From an uncultured virus (IMG/VR IMGVR_UViG_3300002835_015924) (lineage: Duplodnaviria > Heunggongvirae > Uroviricota > Caudoviricetes), in the IMG/VR virus record IMGVR_UViG_3300002835_015924: 20,000 nt of DNA. The stretch is one strand, 5' to 3'. Made by a program: the position numbers and the translations under genes. This document shows, in pieces, positions 12,361 through 19,738 of the stretch (position 1 is its first letter; each line of letters begins with the position of its first letter). The notes beneath the pieces were generated by a model, which was not told where the DNA came from, made no database searches, and saw nothing but the letters and a program-made list of their open reading frames with translations.

Positions 12361-12624
12361 ATGTCAGATTATCCAACAATTATTTTACCAAATTCTGTAG
12401 AAGTACAGCCTGCCATTAACACTGATACATTCAAGGTGTTGCAAGTGGCTGAAAACCCTGATGAAAAATGGCTTAACGCTTATGTTAGCGGTGGCGCTCA
12501 AAATGTTTGGGTATCAGTGTTGACACCAGAAACCTATCATGCTGATTGGAGCGATGAAACCATCTCGGAAGCTGTGATTTTGTGGGCTGAAGCCACTTAT
12601 CCTCCTTCACTTAAAAGAATATGA
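12361..12624 (+). CDS. Hypothetical protein (87 aa, acidic, phage-like)
   Basis: ORF with ATGA coupling to next gene; AGG-N19-GAAT motif upstream. Confidence 0.7.
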   Translation: MSDYPTIILPNSVEVQPAINTDTFKVLQVAENPDEKWLNAYVSGGAQNVWVSVLTPETYHADWSDETISEAVILWAEATYPPSLKRI

Positions 12625-12950
12625 CAAATCTATATTATTTTACTTCAAAAAATTGTTACATTTATTGTTTTGCTCACACTATCGAAGAGGCAATTAAGTT
12701 TATTAAAGCAAATTGTCCCACGTATAATCGTTTATATTCTTATAATGTAAAACTAGTAGAAGATGAAGTTTTGCAAGAGGATGGCGTGGAAATTTTAAGA
12801 AAAAACAATTTTGTTGGTATTCCTGAAGTAAAACATTTCATGTTAAATGGCTCAGTATCTGCTCAGCAAAATCATTTTGACACAAAACAGAGGTCTGCAA
12901 GACTTTGGTGCTCCAAAGAAGTGCCAGAAACCACGCAACTTTGGAAGTAA
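12621..12950 (+). CDS. Hypothetical protein
   Basis: 109-aa ORF, ATGA-coupled, no recognisable motif. Confidence 0.65.
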   Translation: MTNLYYFTSKNCYIYCFAHTIEEAIKFIKANCPTYNRLYSYNVKLVEDEVLQEDGVEILRKNNFVGIPEVKHFMLNGSVSAQQNHFDTKQRSARLWCSKEVPETTQLWK

Positions 12951-12979
12951 AAAAAACGTAAATTCAAATAGGATATTTT

Positions 12980-13408
12980 ATGGATGAAAATTTAAGAAAT
13001 AATTTAGGCGAGCTTTTTCCGGAACTGGTTTTTTTTGATGACCCAGTGAAAGATTCTTCGATTGTTGGGTTAGGTTTACTTAATGATAATGGGCCAGCAT
13101 GGTGTGTTGTTTACGATGAAAACTTAGTTATTAATGATTTATTGTCTGAGTTTGGTGATGAACAGGATGCTATCGATTGGTACAGCTATAACACTGCTGG
13201 CACATACTGCGGCGAAACCACTCCAATATTCATTCATGAAAATGATTACAATGATTTTCCAGCCTCAAGAATAGGAAGGGAATTTTTAAGCTTTTATCGT
13301 TTGCATGATATCAAAGACTACGAACAGGCTTTACATCTTGTTTCAAATGAAAATTTCTTTGTGTTTGTTGGCTTGAATCAATTAGATGAAATCAGAGATA
13401 TAGTTTAA
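12980..13408 (+). CDS. Conserved phage-type hypothetical protein
   Basis: DSSIVG...VVYD...DAIDWYSYNTAGTYCGETTPIFI pattern recalled from a widespread small phage protein family; AGGA SD upstream. Confidence 0.7.
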   Translation: MDENLRNNLGELFPELVFFDDPVKDSSIVGLGLLNDNGPAWCVVYDENLVINDLLSEFGDEQDAIDWYSYNTAGTYCGETTPIFIHENDYNDFPASRIGREFLSFYRLHDIKDYEQALHLVSNENFFVFVGLNQLDEIRDIV

Positions 13409-13734
13409 TGCGGTATAGATGGATTATATATTATGATGGCGCTTGTCCTTTGTGTGAAAATGCGGCTTCTACCTTGAAACTTTTAATTTGGAATTACATA
13501 AAACTGACATTTGTTGATTTGAACGGTGAAATAGCAAAAGCTAAAGGATACAGCAACAAGCAGGTAGTTTTAGAAACTTCACAAGGTGTGTATTTTGGTA
13601 TGCAAGCATGGCTAAAAATACTAGAACACACCAAGTACAGTTGGGCAACACATATATTATTGAGGCCTTTGTTTTGTGTGCTTTATTTCATTGTTTCTAG
13701 AAATCGAAAACTTTTAAGTAAAATATTTTCTTAA
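13408..13734 (+). CDS. DCC1-like (DUF393) thiol-disulfide oxidoreductase family protein
   Basis: N-terminal YYDGACPLC (DxxCxxC) and C-terminal LYFIVSRNR. Confidence 0.8.
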   Translation: MRYRWIIYYDGACPLCENAASTLKLLIWNYIKLTFVDLNGEIAKAKGYSNKQVVLETSQGVYFGMQAWLKILEHTKYSWATHILLRPLFCVLYFIVSRNRKLLSKIFS

Positions 13735-14132
13735 TCTTCTAAGGCTGCTTTAAGTATTTGAGCTAAGTCCATCACAGCTTGTTGATCGTCGCCTTCGTTT
13801 TCATTAGTTATTGTTTCAATAACATCCTGAAATTCAGGAGAATTAACGATTTCAGCGGCAATTTCAGAAGCCTGTTCGTCAATATCTTGTTCAGGCATAT
13901 CTCCAGACATATCTTCAGGCTCAGAAAAATCTGACTCTTCCATAACTGGATTTTCAATTGGTGGGAACAGTTTTGTGTCAACAGTAGTCACATCTGTGTC
14001 TGGAGCAATTTCATCAGCAGCATCACCGATAACATCAGTTAACTTCTGTGATACTTCTGGGTTATCATTTTCTAATTCTTCGGCCATTTGCGAAAGTCTT
14101 ATTAAATTTTTAAGCAATTTAATTTTATCCAT
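13731..14132 (-). CDS. Acidic hypothetical protein with N-terminal LIRLSQMAEELE motif
   Basis: 133-aa D/E-rich ORF; promoter motifs upstream. Confidence 0.75.
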   Translation of the reverse strand: MDKIKLLKNLIRLSQMAEELENDNPEVSQKLTDVIGDAADEIAPDTDVTTVDTKLFPPIENPVMEESDFSEPEDMSGDMPEQDIDEQASEIAAEIVNSPEFQDVIETITNENEGDDQQAVMDLAQILKAALED

Positions 14133-14165
14133 TAATTACTTTTTACACATTACTTAACAACAATC

Positions 14166-14330
14166 CTTTATCTGATTTTACGTGAACTACCGCTAGGCTA
14201 AAGACCCAGCGGCTTCCTGCTTCATAGATTCCGATTTGCGGCCCGTGAGGGCCGTAGGGATCAGATTCTCCACAGGCGTGAATTCGGTATGTTCCGTACC
14301 TATAAGATTTTTTCCGAATAATATCATCAT
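14166..14330 (-). ncRNA. Predicted TnpB omegaRNA/reRNA (scaffold overlapping tnpB 3' end to 14182; guide approx. 14181-14166)
   Basis: Established architecture of IS605 TnpB; GC-rich hairpins CGGCCC-GTGA-GGGCCG (14239-14254) and the RE hairpin (14190-14212). 5' boundary is approximate. Confidence 0.65.
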
Positions 14331-15491
14331 GTTAGCTGAGTGAACATCTCGATCACAACTATAACCACAAGCACATTCATAAATACGCTGACTCAGATTG
14401 TGTTTGTTCTTGCATCCGCAAATGCAAGTCTGTGTAGTTGGAATGAATTGATCTAACATAGTTGCTCTTTCACAGCTCTTTAGTTTCATTTTCACTCTTC
14501 CCAACACAGAATGTTGTATCTTCTTACTTCCTCTGGCTAATGATTTTTTATTCTTCCATCCTTTGATGTTTTCGTCTTGAAAATAAATATGTTCAGATTG
14601 TTTCAATTCTGACACAATCTTATTAGCAATATCATTTTTAACATTACTAATCTGTTGATATTCTTTTCTGATTTTCTTGATTGTTTTATTTCTGTTGTTA
14701 GAACTTTTTTTTCTTCTAGATAATTCTCTTTGAAGAGTTTTTAGTCGTTCAGTTTCTTCAACATAAACATTGATTTTCTTTCCATTTGATAAAGTTATAT
14801 TATTCTTAATGCCCATGTCCAGTCCTATACTGGTTCCTGGTTCATACTGATCTTTCACTTTGCTTTTATGTACATATGTCGTGATAGCTACATAATATCC
14901 ATCCGGTCTGCTAATCAGTTTTGCATTAGCACAATCACAATCTGGATCAAGCTGGTGTGATCCTTTAACTCTAACATCCCCTGAAACTCCTTGTATTTTC
15001 ATTTTTGTTTCAGATTTAATTTTGTATGTAGCTCCAAATTGTTTTAGATTAATTGAATTCACTTCAGATGTGAATTTTAGACTTCCTATTTTCTTTCCTT
15101 TCTCTCTAATTCTTGCAAGAACCCTGATATTGTCTTTCACTTCATCTATTACAGACTGGGTTTGCTGTGCTGAGATGAATTTCTTTTCTCTTAATTCAAG
15201 ATTTCCATCTTTATTCATCACTTGAATGAAATCACCACATTTATAATCAAAAATGGGATTATCTTTTCCGAAAGCAATCATTTCATTTCTAATCCATTTA
15301 GCTTCAACAAAAAGCATTTTTAGTTGTTCTTTTTGCCTTTGATTAAGTTTATTAGATTGTATTTTAACTGTTATAACTTTACAAGATTGGGTTTTTCGTT
15401 TTTCCTTAGTTTCAGACATGCTCATGCTAATCAGCATGTTCCGCTCGGAACGTGCTGATTGATCCATATTAGATCTTCTGTGATGAGGCAT
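14193..15491 (-). CDS. tnpB: TnpB RNA-guided endonuclease
   Basis: RuvC-I GLDMGIK, RuvC-II region IYFQDEN, Zn finger CICG...CACG, RuvC-III DRDVHSA; C-terminal tail overlapping right end. Confidence 0.93.
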   Translation of the reverse strand: MPHHRRSNMDQSARSERNMLISMSMSETKEKRKTQSCKVITVKIQSNKLNQRQKEQLKMLFVEAKWIRNEMIAFGKDNPIFDYKCGDFIQVMNKDGNLELREKKFISAQQTQSVIDEVKDNIRVLARIREKGKKIGSLKFTSEVNSINLKQFGATYKIKSETKMKIQGVSGDVRVKGSHQLDPDCDCANAKLISRPDGYYVAITTYVHKSKVKDQYEPGTSIGLDMGIKNNITLSNGKKINVYVEETERLKTLQRELSRRKKSSNNRNKTIKKIRKEYQQISNVKNDIANKIVSELKQSEHIYFQDENIKGWKNKKSLARGSKKIQHSVLGRVKMKLKSCERATMLDQFIPTTQTCICGCKNKHNLSQRIYECACGYSCDRDVHSANMMILFGKNLIGTEHTEFTPVENLIPTALTGRKSESMKQEAAGSLA

Positions 15492-15532
15492 AATGCAGGA
15501 TTCTTATCTAACTATAACTAAACCTTCTTTAT
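15492..15532. promoter_or_regulatory. Overlapping face-to-face AGG-N19-NAAW motifs serving tnpA and tnpB
   Basis: CAGGATT (AGG 15497-15499, -36 of tnpA ATG) and AAGGTTT (AGG 15525-15523, -34 of tnpB ATG). Confidence 0.5.
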
Positions 15533-15955
15533 ATGAAAAATATAGTAAATAAAAAATATAAATCAAATTGTCATCAAAAATACAGAACTAGATACCATTT
15601 TATTTTTTCGACTAAATATAGAAAGAAATGTCTAAAAGGTATTGAAGCAGAGACTGAATTAGCCTTTAGATATAGCGAATCAATATCTGATTACAAAATA
15701 CTTTATTTTGGAATAGATAAAGACCATGTACATTTATTAGTAGAATTTAAACCTAGTTTATCGATAGGGCAAGTTGTTAATAGAATGAAATCTATAACTA
15801 CAAACGAGCTTTGGAAAAATAAATCTGAACATTTGTCAAAATTTTATTGGAAAAATAAGAAATTATTATGGACTCATGGATATTTTGCTGAAACAACAGG
15901 CAATGTTAGCGAAGCTAACATTGCTGAATACATTCTTGAACAAGGTCTTAAATAG
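15533..15955 (+). CDS. tnpA: IS200-type Y1 (HUH) transposase
   Basis: YHFIFSTKYRK, DKDHVHLLV (HUH), LWTHGYF, EYILEQ (catalytic Tyr). Confidence 0.95.
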   Translation: MKNIVNKKYKSNCHQKYRTRYHFIFSTKYRKKCLKGIEAETELAFRYSESISDYKILYFGIDKDHVHLLVEFKPSLSIGQVVNRMKSITTNELWKNKSEHLSKFYWKNKKLLWTHGYFAETTGNVSEANIAEYILEQGLK

Positions 15956-16019
15956 AAATTCACATGACGATGCTAAAGACATCGCATCTATCTTTCTATT
16001 TTTTTCGTATAATACTAAT

Positions 16020-16562
16020 ATGACTATCATATCTTGTTCTTATAAAAAACGTGTTGGAAAAGATACATTTTGTCGAATTGTGCAAGAGCTTTTTCCTGAT
16101 AAAAAAGTAATTAGAGTGGCTTTTGCAGACGAGCTTAAAGAAGAATTGGACACCATTTTATTAAAGCCAAATGGAATATCTAGAAGAATTTTTGAAGACC
16201 CAAAAGTCAAAGAAATTGCTAGACCTCTGCTACAGGGCTGGGGAACAATTCGTAGAGAATTTTGTGACATCAATTATTGGGTAAAAAGGGCTTTTTGGAA
16301 GATGAACGATCCAAATGCAATTTACATTATTACTGATGCCAGATACTTGAATGAAATTGAATTTATTAATTCGCAAAATGGTCACACAGTTCACATCAAA
16401 CGTAATCTAGATGTAGATTCTTTGTCAGAACATTCTTCAGAAACTGAATTAGACAATTATCATCATTTGTTCAAATACACCATTGAAAATTATGGTACAG
16501 AAGCTCAATTTAAAGAAAAAATCAAAGATTTAATGGACAAGATTTTTGCTGAAGCCGCTTAA
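16020..16562 (+). CDS. Deoxynucleoside monophosphate kinase (phage T4 gp1-like); start revised to ATG 16020
   Basis: KKRVGKDT P-loop variant, AFADELK, RPLLQGWGT, ITDARYLNE, HSSETELD; the longer ORF-track extension lies inside the IS left end. Confidence 0.85.
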   Translation: MTIISCSYKKRVGKDTFCRIVQELFPDKKVIRVAFADELKEELDTILLKPNGISRRIFEDPKVKEIARPLLQGWGTIRREFCDINYWVKRAFWKMNDPNAIYIITDARYLNEIEFINSQNGHTVHIKRNLDVDSLSEHSSETELDNYHHLFKYTIENYGTEAQFKEKIKDLMDKIFAEAA

Positions 16563-17098
16563 TTGGCTTCAGCTTTTTTCTCAAGTTCTAACACAAGTTT
16601 TTTAAGTTCGCTCAAGTCTTCTGTCACAAACAAATTGAAGATAGGTATTTTTTTATTCTGAGCTATTCTTAATGCTTGCCCAGTGCCCCCTTTCCAATTG
16701 CCAGAGGCATCTACTTCACAATAACAAACAATGAAATTAGATTTTGTTTGGCAATTTTCTCCAAGCACTTGATAGCTGTTTCTAGCCATAAGTTTTTGCA
16801 CACCATCACTTGTTTCAAAAAGATTGGGGTGAAATTGAAAAGCGATCTCAAATGCTTTTGCGCATTGTGTGTATAGCAAAGAAGGATGATTATTAAAGCC
16901 TTTCCACGGAAGATAAATTTCTTTTTTGCCATTTTGTGAATCACAGCCTTTTTCAAAAGCTTTGTCTGCTCCATCTGCCGCGCCAGATCTCAACACAAAA
17001 CCTTTTTTTGCTAAGACAGCCCCAATTTTTTCCATAATTTTTAGAATATTTTCAGGTGTAGAGCGAGAACCAATTCCTGCGTAGTAAATTACATCCAA
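16559..17098 (-). CDS. SLOG-superfamily (DprA/Smf-like Rossmann) protein, phage type
   Basis: YAGIGSRSTP, LRSGAADGADKAFE, IYLPW, ARNSYQVLG, GGTGQALRIA. Confidence 0.8.
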   Translation of the reverse strand: MDVIYYAGIGSRSTPENILKIMEKIGAVLAKKGFVLRSGAADGADKAFEKGCDSQNGKKEIYLPWKGFNNHPSLLYTQCAKAFEIAFQFHPNLFETSDGVQKLMARNSYQVLGENCQTKSNFIVCYCEVDASGNWKGGTGQALRIAQNKKIPIFNLFVTEDLSELKKLVLELEKKAEAN

Positions 17099-17685
17099 GG
17101 GTTTCCACCATAAACTTGAATCAGAGATTCCTTTACTTTAAGCCTATCTTTACTCACGCTGATTTTTTTATCGTATGATGATTGTGTGATATTTTCTGGC
17201 CAAATATAATCCCTTCTAAATAAATCTGGGTCTTTCATTTCTTCCCATTTGAATTGTGAATACCATTGTATAGTTTCATCTGCCTTCTTTCTGCCATTTT
17301 CTTTTTCTTCAAAGCCTTTTTGAAGTAATCTAGCTCTGTGCGAAGAGTGTATTTCTTCGTCACCAAGCCATACAGGAGAAGAAAGTGAAGTAGTATATTT
17401 CTTATATTCTGACAGTTTTGCGTCAATATAATCAGTTTTACAATCTCGATTTTTCATTTCTAGAGAATTGTAAATCAAATATTCCACTAAGGCTCCAGGT
17501 GTGGCAGCCCAGGCAATCAAAGCTGGATGATTCATCCATCCTTTTCTGAGTTTACCTGATTTTGTTGGAATATTGAACATTATATCTAGCAATTGTGAAG
17601 CTTCTAATCCTTGTTTCACTAATCTTTTTGTGTCTAATGATTCAAGGCTTTTTTGATAATCGGCATAGGGCATAAATACTTGCAT
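17089..17685 (-). CDS. Pyrimidine-dimer DNA glycosylase/endonuclease V-like protein (MSMEG_6728 family)
   Basis: MQVFMPY...LDTKRLVKQGLE, GWMNHPA, WLGDEEIHSSHRARLLQK, YIWP. Confidence 0.8.
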   Translation of the reverse strand: MQVFMPYADYQKSLESLDTKRLVKQGLEASQLLDIMFNIPTKSGKLRKGWMNHPALIAWAATPGALVEYLIYNSLEMKNRDCKTDYIDAKLSEYKKYTTSLSSPVWLGDEEIHSSHRARLLQKGFEEKENGRKKADETIQWYSQFKWEEMKDPDLFRRDYIWPENITQSSYDKKISVSKDRLKVKESLIQVYGGNPWM

Positions 17686-17740
17686 ATTTAATATTACGAA
17701 AAATAATTGAAAAATAGGTAAGTTTTGTGTGACTTGAGTA

Positions 17741-17769
17741 GTAACAAATTAGACACACAAAACGTCTAA
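17741..17769 (+). promoter_or_regulatory. Putative ECF-sigma-type promoter GTAAC-N17-CGTCTA upstream of the STN gene
   Basis: GTAAC 17741-17745 and CGTC 17763-17766, matching the AAC/CGT ECF consensus. Confidence 0.45.
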
Positions 17770-17806
17770 AGAATAGTAACTCAATGAAGAGTTAAATTGG
17801 AGAAAA

Positions 17807-18412
17807 ATGAACAAAAAAATTTTAAGTTTTGTATTAATTGTGATAAGCCTTTTCACATTCGCCTCATTGTCTTGCGCACAATTCAATGGTTCTACCAAAA
17901 AAATAACTGTGGAATACAAAGACACAGATGTTAGGGAGGCAATTATGGCTATTTTACATTCAGCCAATATCAGTTACTCGATTTATCCAGAAGTGCAAGG
18001 ACAAATAACTTTGTCAGTAAAAGAAGTACCTTTAGAAAATGTTCTAGAAAATATCCTTAGACAAGTGGATTGCACCTACGAATATGTAGCTGGACTGATT
18101 GTCGTTAAGAAGAGAAAGGAAGAAATAATTCCAGAAACTACAGACATAACAACTTCACAACCTAATAAACCCACAAAGGTAATCAGAAGATTAGTGATTA
18201 GAAGTGCAGATCCTTTGCTAATTTCAATGCTGCTCAGTGGAAGCCAAAATTACTTTGGAAGCCCCGAACCCATTCAGGCTTCATACTTATCAACAGGTTT
18301 CGGTATGAATGGCATGTTTTCAGGTATGAACGGAGGAATGAGCGGATTTGGCGGTATGACCGGAAATGGTGGATTTGGTCAATCAGGTGCGCCAGGAAAT
18401 AGAGGTAATTAA
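17807..18412 (+). CDS. Exported protein with secretin/TonB short N-terminal (STN)-like domain and Gly/Met-rich tail
   Basis: Sec signal peptide MNKKILSFVLIVISLFTFASLSCA; ITVEYKDTDVREAI...VQGQITLSVKEVPLENVLENIL; GGMSGFGG tail; GGAG SD. Confidence 0.78.
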   Translation: MNKKILSFVLIVISLFTFASLSCAQFNGSTKKITVEYKDTDVREAIMAILHSANISYSIYPEVQGQITLSVKEVPLENVLENILRQVDCTYEYVAGLIVVKKRKEEIIPETTDITTSQPNKPTKVIRRLVIRSADPLLISMLLSGSQNYFGSPEPIQASYLSTGFGMNGMFSGMNGGMSGFGGMTGNGGFGQSGAPGNRGN

Positions 18413-18416
18413 ATGT

Positions 18417-18440
18417 AGGGGGGAAATCCCCCCTTTTTTT
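18417..18440 (+). terminator. Rho-independent terminator
   Basis: AGGGGGG-AAAT-CCCCCCT hairpin followed by a T-tract, just after the STN gene stop. Confidence 0.85.
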
Positions 18441-18714
18441 ATCTTTCTGAGGGAGGAGTGTATGAAGCGATCAAATCTACTGCAATTTTTTCCAGGCCAT
18501 CCACGCCTTCTGTGACCTTTTCGAGTTGCGTTAAAACTAATTTAAGATTTTCATGCACTTCTTCAAGATGTGGTTCTTCCCAGGTTTGAACTCTTCCAAT
18601 GAGTGCATTTAAATTTAAGAATTGCACTTTATTATGAAATCTGTTCACAATAGCGTCGATTAAAAATACACAATGCAAGATATCCTTGAGTTTTTCTACT
18701 TGTTTTTCTTCCAT
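18439..18714 (-). CDS. Hypothetical protein (91 aa, helical)
   Basis: ORF with GTAAAAT-N6-ATG box. Confidence 0.7.
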   Translation of the reverse strand: MEEKQVEKLKDILHCVFLIDAIVNRFHNKVQFLNLNALIGRVQTWEEPHLEEVHENLKLVLTQLEKVTEGVDGLEKIAVDLIASYTPPSER

Positions 18715-18731
18715 AAAATTATTTTACATTT

Positions 18732-19190
18732 TTATTCTGAAAAAACAGCATACTCTTGACCATTTTTTTCATAAGAGCCTACTTGAATTGCCCCAGCTGC
18801 GTTGATTAAAGCATCTGCACCTTGAGATTTTACCGCTTTCCCTTCGTGACAAGCTATATAATTCATCCCTGGATAATTTTTTTGCATCCATTCTTGGAAC
18901 TGATCTTCATTCGCTTGATAAAGCTCGCCAGCTTTGCCTTCTCTAGGAATACTAAACATTACACCTGATGGTGAATCAATTCCATGAAGCAATAAAATTT
19001 GACTAGTTCTACCATCAGAAGTTTTGACAGTGATTGGTGCAGGAGGACTATTTTGATTTATGTTAGATATGCTTCCTGCAGTAATTTCTACCTCCAGAGC
19101 ACCCCCAGATGGAATTGTTTGTTTAGGTTTGGTAGGGTCTAATTCCTCTGTATTGTTCAAATCTATATTTTGAGAATATCTGTACCACAT
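18732..19190 (-). CDS. Hypothetical protein starting MWYRYSQ (start revised to ATG 19190); possible His-Cys peptidase-like motifs
   Basis: First ATG in frame; TAAAGG motif at -35; LLLHG and YIACH motifs. Confidence 0.7.
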   Translation of the reverse strand: MWYRYSQNIDLNNTEELDPTKPKQTIPSGGALEVEITAGSISNINQNSPPAPITVKTSDGRTSQILLLHGIDSPSGVMFSIPREGKAGELYQANEDQFQEWMQKNYPGMNYIACHEGKAVKSQGADALINAAGAIQVGSYEKNGQEYAVFSE

Positions 19191-19225
19191 AATATTAGTT
19201 TTGTGTGATTTAAAACTCAAAACCT

Positions 19226-19738
19226 TTAAGCAAATTTATCACACTTATCAAAACTTGCACCAAGTTTATCTTTATCAGATATTATTATTGGCAAATCTTT
19301 CCATGCAATTTTAAGGCTATTGTAAATTAAAGTTCTGTCATGTTTGGGGCTATAATAATCTGAACATTTGTAATAGAAAGTAGTGTTTTCTTCTAAACTT
19401 TGAAAACCATGTGCAAACCCTTCAGGCACAAACATTGCTAACCCGTTTTCAGCTGAAAGTTCAATTTCAAACCATTTACCAAATGTTTCAGAAGATTTTC
19501 TCAAATCCACAACAACATCCAATACTTTCCCACACAAAACGTACACCAGTTTTGCTTGTGGATTTTCAATTTGATAATGTAAACCTCTTATCACACCTTT
19601 TTTAGACACAGAGCAATTATCTTGCACAAAATTACAGGGATAAGTTTTGTGTTTGTTGACAAATATTTCAGAAAATTTTCCTCTGTCATCCCCAAAACAT
19701 TTAAGTTGTTGGACAATAATTCCGCCAAATGGTTCCAT
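19226..19738 (-). CDS. rmlC: dTDP-4-dehydrorhamnose 3,5-epimerase
   Basis: DDRGKFSE, VQDNCSVSKKGVIRGLHYQ, QAKLV, DVVVDLRKSSETFGKW, PEGFAHGF, ISDKD. Confidence 0.95.
   Translation of the reverse strand: MEPFGGIIVQQLKCFGDDRGKFSEIFVNKHKTYPCNFVQDNCSVSKKGVIRGLHYQIENPQAKLVYVLCGKVLDVVVDLRKSSETFGKWFEIELSAENGLAMFVPEGFAHGFQSLEENTTFYYKCSDYYSPKHDRTLIYNSLKIAWKDLPIIISDKDKLGASFDKCDKFA

Follow-up and report, generated by a model that had tools for sequence, protein, structure and literature searches.

An apparently intact IS200/IS605 element beside a gene-start box of a lake phage, and the sites occupied by its relatives

In IS608, recognition of the cleavage sites depends on four guide bases located 5' of the foot of each hairpin; C-3 is paired with guide base 1 and T-4 with guide base 2, and A-2 is left unpaired (PMC3201880). 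For TnpB, the nuclease of these elements, the target geometry in the family consists of a transposon-associated motif (TAM) adjoining the flank of the right end (RE), according to PMC8612924 and a preprint (10.1101/2023.03.14.532601), and the TAM is the left cleavage site of the transposase (PMC8612924). We compared these systems with a locus on a 20,000-nucleotide (nt) stretch of an uncultured virus, IMGVR_UViG_3300002835_015924, the whole of which is called the window. Positions 14182-16006 of the window are apparently an intact IS200/IS605 element, which lies between a gene of 133 amino acids (aa) (13731-14132, minus strand) and the gene of a deoxynucleoside monophosphate (dNMP) kinase (plus strand, ATG at 16020). 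In our judgement it is very likely that this is an IS608-type element, intact-looking and recently mobile, and that target specificity together with the loss of gene-breaking insertions has concentrated it at a short box in front of phage genes.

Borders, ends and guides of the element

On the minus strand the order within the element is left end (LE), tnpA in the opposite sense, tnpB and RE. The parts are as follows.

14182-16006, minus strand: whole IS200/IS605 element, 1825 nt (borders of related copies, and the 1825-nt skip in lake run X11)
15533-15955, plus strand: tnpA, Y1 HUH transposase, 140 aa, directed towards the dNMP kinase gene (Pfam Y1_Tnp PF01797, E 2.5e-29)
14193-15491, minus strand: tnpB, 432 aa, divergent from tnpA (Pfam OrfB_IS605 PF01385 and Cas12f1-like_TNB PF07282)
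15964-15991, minus strand: LE subterminal hairpin including the guide (arms 15980-15987 and 15964-15972, loop TCTTTAG at 15973-15979)
15988-15991, minus strand: LE guide ATAG, the 4 nt directly 5' of the LE hairpin, read from the sequence
14182-14305, minus strand: RE, including a scaffold that resembles omega-RNA (8 aligned copies and their consensus fold)
14213-14216, minus strand: RE guide GAAG, from the sequence
14190-14212, minus strand: RE terminal hairpin, loop TCTTTAG, from the sequence
14182-14189, minus strand: last letters of the RE, TAGTTCAC, from the sequence
16007-16011, minus strand: target and predicted TAM, TATAC, which remains in the flank (core ATAC at 16007-16010, TTATAC at 16007-16012)

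Relatives of TnpB were collected by protein search, with 94% identity for the nearest and then 83% down to ~64%. The metagenome scan for such relatives gave 21 loci; one of them, L017, is the sequence of the window itself (100% over 14095-16094). Relatives present only in ENA/Logan (e.g. P0002, P0007, P0009-P0011) are known as protein only and stand outside the locus comparisons. Scanning viral_contigs with the TnpB protein gave no locus and then one distant locus, and scanning genome_contigs gave none; the exact flank patterns searched in viral_contigs were not found there. At the RE, ten other related loci all terminate in ...GGTAGTTCAC, with sequence diverging beyond the position that corresponds to window 14182. 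On the LE side, the copies have in common a hairpin with loop TCTTTAG, preceded by AAGATAG and ~19 nt of LE. Beyond TATAC, in the upstream direction, their flanks no longer agree, and this places the border at window 16006|16007. Since the RE end is fixed at 14182 and the LE flanks diverge upstream of TATAC, the element comprises 14182-16006. The first-pass annotation, made from the letters of the window, gave the span 14182..16013; of this the element itself ends at 16006, and positions 16007-16013 belong to the flank.

Both proteins carry the residues expected of their families. TnpA was aligned to solved IS200-like transposases, ISHp608 among them (2a6m/2vhg), across the H-V-H motif and the C-terminal Tyr motif. 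In TnpB, the RuvC residues Asp/Glu/Asp and the Cys cluster are invariant across 12 relatives, and the three RuvC acidic positions are retained in the alignment to ISDra2 TnpB (8bf8), a match that is itself weak (phmmer E 1.5e-10). The long form of tnpB, starting at 15491, is probably the true one because its N-terminal extension is conserved in most relatives. The part that codes for this extension (…ERNMLIS…) also holds a 15-nt perfect-looking palindrome, at 15429-15460 in the 5' end of tnpB.

Subterminal hairpins take the place of terminal inverted repeats in this element: those of LE and RE have the same loop, TCTTTAG, and show compensatory stem changes between copies. The LE hairpin is retained with altered stem letters in L018, L022, L026 and L028. 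The motif of the RE end is widespread. Viral loci that carry it number 51, and in genomes it was found at a minimum of 120 loci, many of these from Methanosarcinales. In its general form (CAGGAAG, 8 nt, TCTTTAR, 8 nt, TAGTTCAC) it was seen in at least 120 genome contigs (L108-L187), which include many of Methanosarcina, Methanolobus and Methanogenium with several copies each, and also Fischerella, Desulfosporosinus and Sulfurovum; the TnpB proteins of these contigs are at most ~34% identical to that of the window.

The target was evaluated on seven independent ATAC-type insertions with a readable LE flank; for four more (L020, L021, L024 and the RE copy in L031) this flank is unreadable at a contig end. 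TATAC is found 5' of the LE in 7/7 and TTATAC in 5/7, the flanks being ATTATAC in the window, L018/19 and L023, TTTATAC in L022 and L028/L037, and AATATAC in L029, so that the fifth base, a T before ATAC, is common to all seven. When the guides are read by the IS608 rule (PMC3201880), the LE guide ATAG predicts AT?C and ATAC is observed, and the RE guide GAAG predicts TC?C and TCAC is observed. In a sister lineage, L025-27 (TnpB 65% identical), the guide AAAG of L026/27 predicts TT?C by the same rule, and the flank observed is TTTAC (target TTAC). Further pairs in the superfamily that shares the RE motif are AAAA with TTTAT, in archaeal relatives, and CAAG with TGAC, and in L092 (TnpB 40% identical) the guide ATAG is again accompanied by TATAC. 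Scripted LE detection in 131 superfamily loci found an LE in 16 and none in 70, with 45 too short; the 16 guides are AAAA (12), CAAG (2), AAAG (1) and ATAG (1). Because the pairs of LE guide and flank fit the IS608 rule across the window and its relatives, ATAC is assigned as the transposase target, as the first-pass annotation had it. The -1 position may pair with the fourth guide base, which is our own reading of the TTAC/AAAG and TCAA pairs.

Insertion sites and the gene-start box

The target of the window element is, on the other strand, the beginning of a box in front of a gene. GTAT at 16007-16010 had been reported to open GTATAAT-N6-ATG of a dNMP kinase, and this reading is borne out by the ATG at 16020 and by matches to Pfam DNMK and phrog_139.

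16007-16022, plus strand: GTATAAT box, 6 nt and ATG of the dNMP kinase gene (the same 13-nt spacing occurs at 7 of 14 GTATAA sites)

In 4/7 insertions the LE lies directly against GTATAA[AT]-N6-ATG of an open reading frame (ORF) that runs away from the element. From the LE flanks, these box insertions and the genes behind them are:

window: dNMP kinase
L018/19: ORF of 104 aa
L022/L031: ORF of 99 aa
L028/L037: Hsp70-like ORF of 617 aa

L029 is a marginal case: its LE-deleted copy adjoins GTATATT, which precedes a 56-aa ORF by 14 nt. In a 347-kb relative, a distant element with TnpB only likewise has its LE against a box, GTATAAA-N6-ATG. As a control, six viral superfamily copies with other targets were inspected, and an ORF start within 50 nt of the LE was found in 0/6.

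The proportion of boxes among possible targets was counted in the window and in the 347-kb relative. Outside the element the window has 30 TATAC sites, 7 of them box-type, and all five strictly intergenic TATAC junctions are boxes (5/5). Junctions at TTATAC are intergenic in 31% of cases in the window, compared with 3.9% for all 6-mers; in the 347-kb relative the values are 25% and 11%. The probability of at least 4/7 insertions at boxes is 0.056 on the window TATAC background (7/30) and 0.002 on the background of the 347-kb relative (58/620). By these counts the target motif provides many harmless sites, and surviving copies are found at them, which agrees with the earlier proposal that a target matching the box gives non-lethal sites. 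The proposed enrichment of other insertions at boxes was likewise found (4/7 against 7/30 window TATAC sites, and 0/6 for copies with other targets), with an excess that depends on the background chosen. Of the three outcomes named beforehand as refuting the idea (other junctions in the empty site, a TAM other than ATAC, no enrichment of other insertions at boxes), none was obtained.

We account for the pattern as follows. The transposase would locate the 4-nt target ATAC, which is TATAC in all flanks, by pairing with the guide ATAG, and would insert the element 3' of it without duplication. In the AT-rich lake phages many transcription units open with a box GTA[T/A][A/T]A[A/T] at 12-14 nt before the ATG, and GTATAA, the common form of this box, is the reverse complement of the target. 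Because such an insertion sets the LE against an intact box and leaves the element upstream, no gene is broken. In the window the box before the dNMP kinase gene is whole and the 133-aa gene with its own box is untouched. Survivors would concentrate at boxes because of the target specificity and the loss of gene-breaking insertions, given that non-coding DNA makes up ~4% of the window and that the strictly intergenic TATAC sites there are all boxes. These two factors would be enough to explain the pattern.

Several observations weigh against this account. L023 is a coding insertion that interrupts the last 23 codons of a 92-aa ORF, and in L092 a 274-aa ORF starts at a distance of 28 nt, with no box at 13 nt. 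Within 7.7 kb of the L025-27 phage there are ten GGTATAAT boxes, but the target used by its copy is TTAC, and this copy abuts an orphan GTATAAT by its RE, not by its LE. In the 347-kb relative just 36/223 TTATAC sites are box-like. On the window TTATAC background (7/14 boxes) the probability of at least 4/7 becomes 0.50, i.e. there is no excess, and the sample of insertions is small.

A stronger claim would be that the guide was tuned by selection, ATAG having arisen or been kept since it matches the phage box, so that the safe harbour is an evolved strategy and not a lucky fit. The LE guide does vary across the superfamily, ATAG is seen in AT-rich viral contigs only (among the LEs found), and TTATAC ranks 7 of 1593 6-mers for intergenic junctions in the window. 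In the 347-kb relative, however, its rank is only 163 of 3542; the L025-27 phage, rich in TATAC-bearing boxes, hosts the TTAC variant, and L092 has ATAG without a box at 13 nt. We therefore regard adaptive tuning as possible but doubtful.

Some further features of the insertions were recorded. After insertion, the first base of the LE supplies the letter before the box, which is T in L018, L022 and L028 and C in the window; T and C are the same letters as those before the seven natural boxes of the window. The contexts given by the first-pass annotation, TTTTC before the box with the element and TTTAC without it, are as stated. In the 347-kb relative there are two more TnpB-only elements with a different LE hairpin (G001 317000-318420 and 341400-342720), and in one of them the RE is 11 nt before the GTATACA box of the next gene. 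Beside the LE-deleted copy, L029:1368-2998 holds a second, unrelated IS200/IS605 element (tnpA 158 aa; tnpB 384 aa, HTH_OrfB). The copy-bearing contigs L028:972-2825, L037:1-1182, L031:701-1228 and L023:1-1217 encode Hsp70-like, OprB-type porin, RF-1 domain and CCA-adding-enzyme-like proteins.

The box itself was characterised in the window. The total number of GTATAA is ordinary (14, compared with 10.9 +/- 3.2 in shuffles), and in seven of the 14 the G stands exactly 13 nt ahead of the A in the ATG of an ORF; the first-pass annotation had claimed eight GTATAA promoter boxes, one more than this count at ORF starts. Orthologous genes keep the box with varying letters: the dNMP kinase has GTATATA in L001, and for the glycosylase the box reads GTATAAT in L019 and, in the window, GTAATAT. 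In another lake phage the box is very regular, ten consecutive genes (L026:37-7434) each having (G/A)AGGTATAAT, 5-6 nt and ATG. We infer that the box is a promoter with its start at or near the ATG. The other candidate function is a translation or RNA-processing signal, in which case the element would survive in any AT-rich spacer; a constant distance of 13 nt to the ATG would fit such a signal as well, and gene 17807 has a GGAG-type site in place of the box. Three points argue against it and make it clearly unlikely. Boxes in the wider form GTA[ATC][AT]A at 12-14 nt occur at 11/20 transcription-unit heads and at 0/7 internal genes, counted as those that overlap the upstream same-strand gene (Fisher p 0.022). 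Divergent gaps such as 1248-1297 are filled by two back-to-back boxes. Finally, with TATAAT followed by 6 nt, a bacterial-type start falls on the A of the ATG by the established spacing, which suits the promoter reading.

Filled and empty alleles and the possible role of TnpB

Twenty public lake and freshwater runs contain at least 72% of the sampled words of 13300-16900, and in four of them (X1, X8, X11, X15) the alleles were compared against window 12500-19500. Among the runs listed for this stretch there was no RNA run. Run X11 has both forms. The filled allele is a 1882-nt contig over 14154-16035 with depth 10.5, and the empty allele is a 57-nt contig with 0 mismatches and depth 2.9, in which 14154-14180/1 is joined to 16006/7-16035. 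It skips exactly 1825 nt; the three letters CGT are common to both ends, which leaves the joint ambiguous by that much. What remains is a plain 65-nt divergent gap, and the contig carries the junction that the first-pass annotation had predicted for the empty site. Runs X1, X8 and X15 show no empty-site joint, their cover being filled or broken. The sequence is compatible with an allele that was never occupied and with seamless excision, so the empty allele may be either.

The reconstructed empty sites of the window (14176-16013) and of L026/27 (L026:2255-2275) have the same 13 letters around the joint, with the elements in opposite orientation. The joint, ACGT, is a palindrome, so that a single junction serves both ATAC as a target on one strand and TTAC as a target on the opposite strand.

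A second site is known from a related phage. The copy in L018/19 is without tnpA, its ends being intact around tnpB alone; it is 92% identical in DNA to the window element and lies at another site, and the phage backbones are ~66% identical. This phage is related to that of the window through a common order of SLOG, glycosylase, small genes and a dTDP-sugar epimerase. The site was matched to the window by proteins, as the DNA alignment failed outside conserved genes:

18715-18731, minus strand: unoccupied orthologous site of the L018/L019 insertion (proteins of the L018 flanks match window 18457-18717 and 18735-19052)

In the window this site is empty and the box reads GTAAAAT, and for that reason it has no TATAC. 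Furthermore, a nearly identical element is inserted three times, in L021, L022 and L023. Because these three are so similar, and because the L018/19 element is 92% identical in a backbone of ~66%, the element appears to have moved recently and between diverged phages. The presence/absence polymorphism and the several insertion sites of near-identical copies, and these only, point to mobility.

The RE is also the putative source of a guide RNA. The last ~120 nt before the RE end have a conserved fold, in which 19 of 48 pairs are kept via changes on both sides in eight copies, and the terminal RE hairpin of this omega-RNA-like scaffold is at the same time the DNA site of the transposase. A search of the window against Rfam gave no match.

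14162-14181, minus strand: RE flank, predicted TnpB guide and target (geometry; guide role inferred from the family)

The empty allele has the RE flank (14181 down to 14162) straight after the predicted TAM. This adjacency, whether it follows excision or belongs to a phage that was never occupied, would make a substrate for the cut by TnpB and its omega-RNA, and the predicted cut would land within the 65-nt divergent gap. The TAM-bearing empty site and the element occur together in run X11. By analogy with the family, TnpB would cleave element-free alleles and support homing, with a possible effect on co-infecting phages.

How far this could go is a matter of more tentative readings. One, which we hold to be rather unlikely as a whole, is a gene drive: an IS605-type element would spread from phage to phage in lake jumbo-phage populations, the LE guide, altered by one base from AAAG to ATAG, would have directed the transposase to the box and so to dozens of harmless sites in each genome, alleles without the element would be converted by TnpB during co-infection, and phages would escape site by site by changing GTATAAT to GTAAAAT, as at 18715-18731. 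Another is that TnpB serves the phage as a weapon against co-infecting relatives without the element, beyond the retention of the element itself. The joint occurrence of filled and empty alleles in one lake sample would fit this, as would the same element in a phage of ~66% identical backbone and the persistence of tnpB-only copies with intact ends in L018/19. Ordinary selfish homing fits equally well, however, and the guide matches the exact empty site only, so that a weapon is decidedly unlikely.

Against the presence of two alleles it must be counted that the empty one is a single contig, found in one of the four runs, at a depth of 2.9 and with a shorter side of 27 letters, where 30 is the caution threshold. 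That the element is fixed and inert and this contig comes from another organism or from an assembly artefact is nevertheless very improbable: all 57 letters match, the contig begins and ends at the same positions as the filled one (14154 and 16035), the length is by our own arithmetic that of junction-spanning words, which we take to have 31 letters, minus the three shared ones, and the junction was predicted beforehand from the family borders.

Neighbouring genes and comparison with known systems

The window has a G+C content of 33% and a high coding density, with ~700 nt of intergenic DNA outside the element, a non-coding share of ~4%. Its genes include sugar-nucleotide enzymes, an S-adenosylhomocysteine (AdoHcy) hydrolase, a DCC1-like protein, the dNMP kinase, a SLOG protein and a pyrimidine-dimer glycosylase. 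Phage records were searched for DNA near-identical to the window and none was found. The two genes that flank the element are:

16020-16562, plus strand: dNMP kinase gene (ATG at 16020; Pfam DNMK and phrog_139 matches)
13731-14132, minus strand: gene of 133 aa, left untouched by the element; a GTAAAAA box of its own stands 14 nt upstream of the ATG

The 133-aa ORF is acidic and matches just residues 708-826, the C-terminal ~120, of an 834-aa protein that has the same gene place in the 347-kb relative (L001:2450-4954); the remainder of that protein is unmatched in the window. An RE-adjacent deletion removing the N-terminal part of the ORF was suspected because only the C-terminal part is matched, and was rejected, the junction of the empty allele being plain. 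At 13889-13890 the same ORF has short-repeat in-frame insertions of 12 nt in run X15 and 24 nt in run X11.

The alternating gene strands and the sugar genes of the window suggested a giant eukaryotic virus. This idea was dropped, as the marker searches were empty and the relative is phage-like: the 347-kb relative gave no match to the capsid of nucleocytoplasmic large DNA viruses (NCLDV), Gp23, Terminase_6N or Rpb2_6, with the capsid and Gp23 controls silent too. Its long blocks of same-strand genes and its PHROG matches point to a large phage. In one region (L039-L042, G001 3.4-68 kb, e.g. L039:3464), ~40 small same-strand genes stand under a second type of repeated upstream sequence, much longer than the box. 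It consists of a G+C-rich hairpin with a T run and then a near-identical cassette of ~35 nt, made up of TTTTCCAGGTTTAACA, 9 nt, TATAAT, 4 nt and ATG, and has the appearance of a terminator-promoter unit repeated within an early region.

When compared with described systems, the window element is closest in design to IS608 (ISHp608, Helicobacter pylori). Both have a Y1 TnpA together with TnpB, subterminal hairpins and a 4-nt guide 5' of the hairpin; in both, left cleavage is ~19 nt 5' of the foot of the LE hairpin and right cleavage a few nt 3' of the RE hairpin, and insertion is 3' of the target, without duplication and with seamless excision (PMC3201880). The letters differ: IS608 has TTAC/AAAG and the right site TCAA, and the window element has ATAC/ATAG and TCAC/GAAG. 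The window element also differs from IS608 in that tnpA and tnpB are divergent and the host is a large lake phage. Divergent tnpA and tnpB are the arrangement of IS605 itself. With ISDra2 of Deinococcus radiodurans it shares the aligned RuvC Asp, Glu and Asp of TnpB and, as a prediction, a guide RNA scaffold extending over both the RE and the 3' end of tnpB. The predicted TAM, TATAC, differs from that of ISDra2, which is TTGAT.

The mechanism is that of an ordinary IS200/IS605 element. Its new features are a specificity of ATAG/ATAC that coincides with a gene-start box of the phage, insertions that use such boxes repeatedly and the filled/empty polymorphism in the wild. The literature was searched for a TAM linked to a phage promoter motif, and in the parts of the sources available no such report was found. 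The locus is a natural example of an IS200/IS605 element whose DNA-encoded target guide coincides with a putative regulatory motif of the host, with several independent insertions. It supplies a TnpB lineage with a predicted TATAC TAM, a natural covariation of guide and target that fits the IS608 rule, and a candidate promoter class for uncultured phages. It would also open to test the persistence of such elements where a genome has hardly any spare DNA, and the question whether TnpB homing operates between co-infecting phages.

Two further systems resemble the locus in its consequences. The free-standing homing endonuclease genes of T4-like phages (seg, mob) are likewise selfish nucleases placed between genes, and they can cut the element-free allele of a co-infecting phage (PMC13565253). 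In comparison with seg and mob, the window element would recognise its site by an RNA guide and a TAM, and its first arrival would be by single-strand transposition. Tn7 at attTn7 is the well-known example of a target choice that spares host genes, as in the window element. Tn7 has one unique safe locus, whereas the window element has a short motif repeated at many gene starts.

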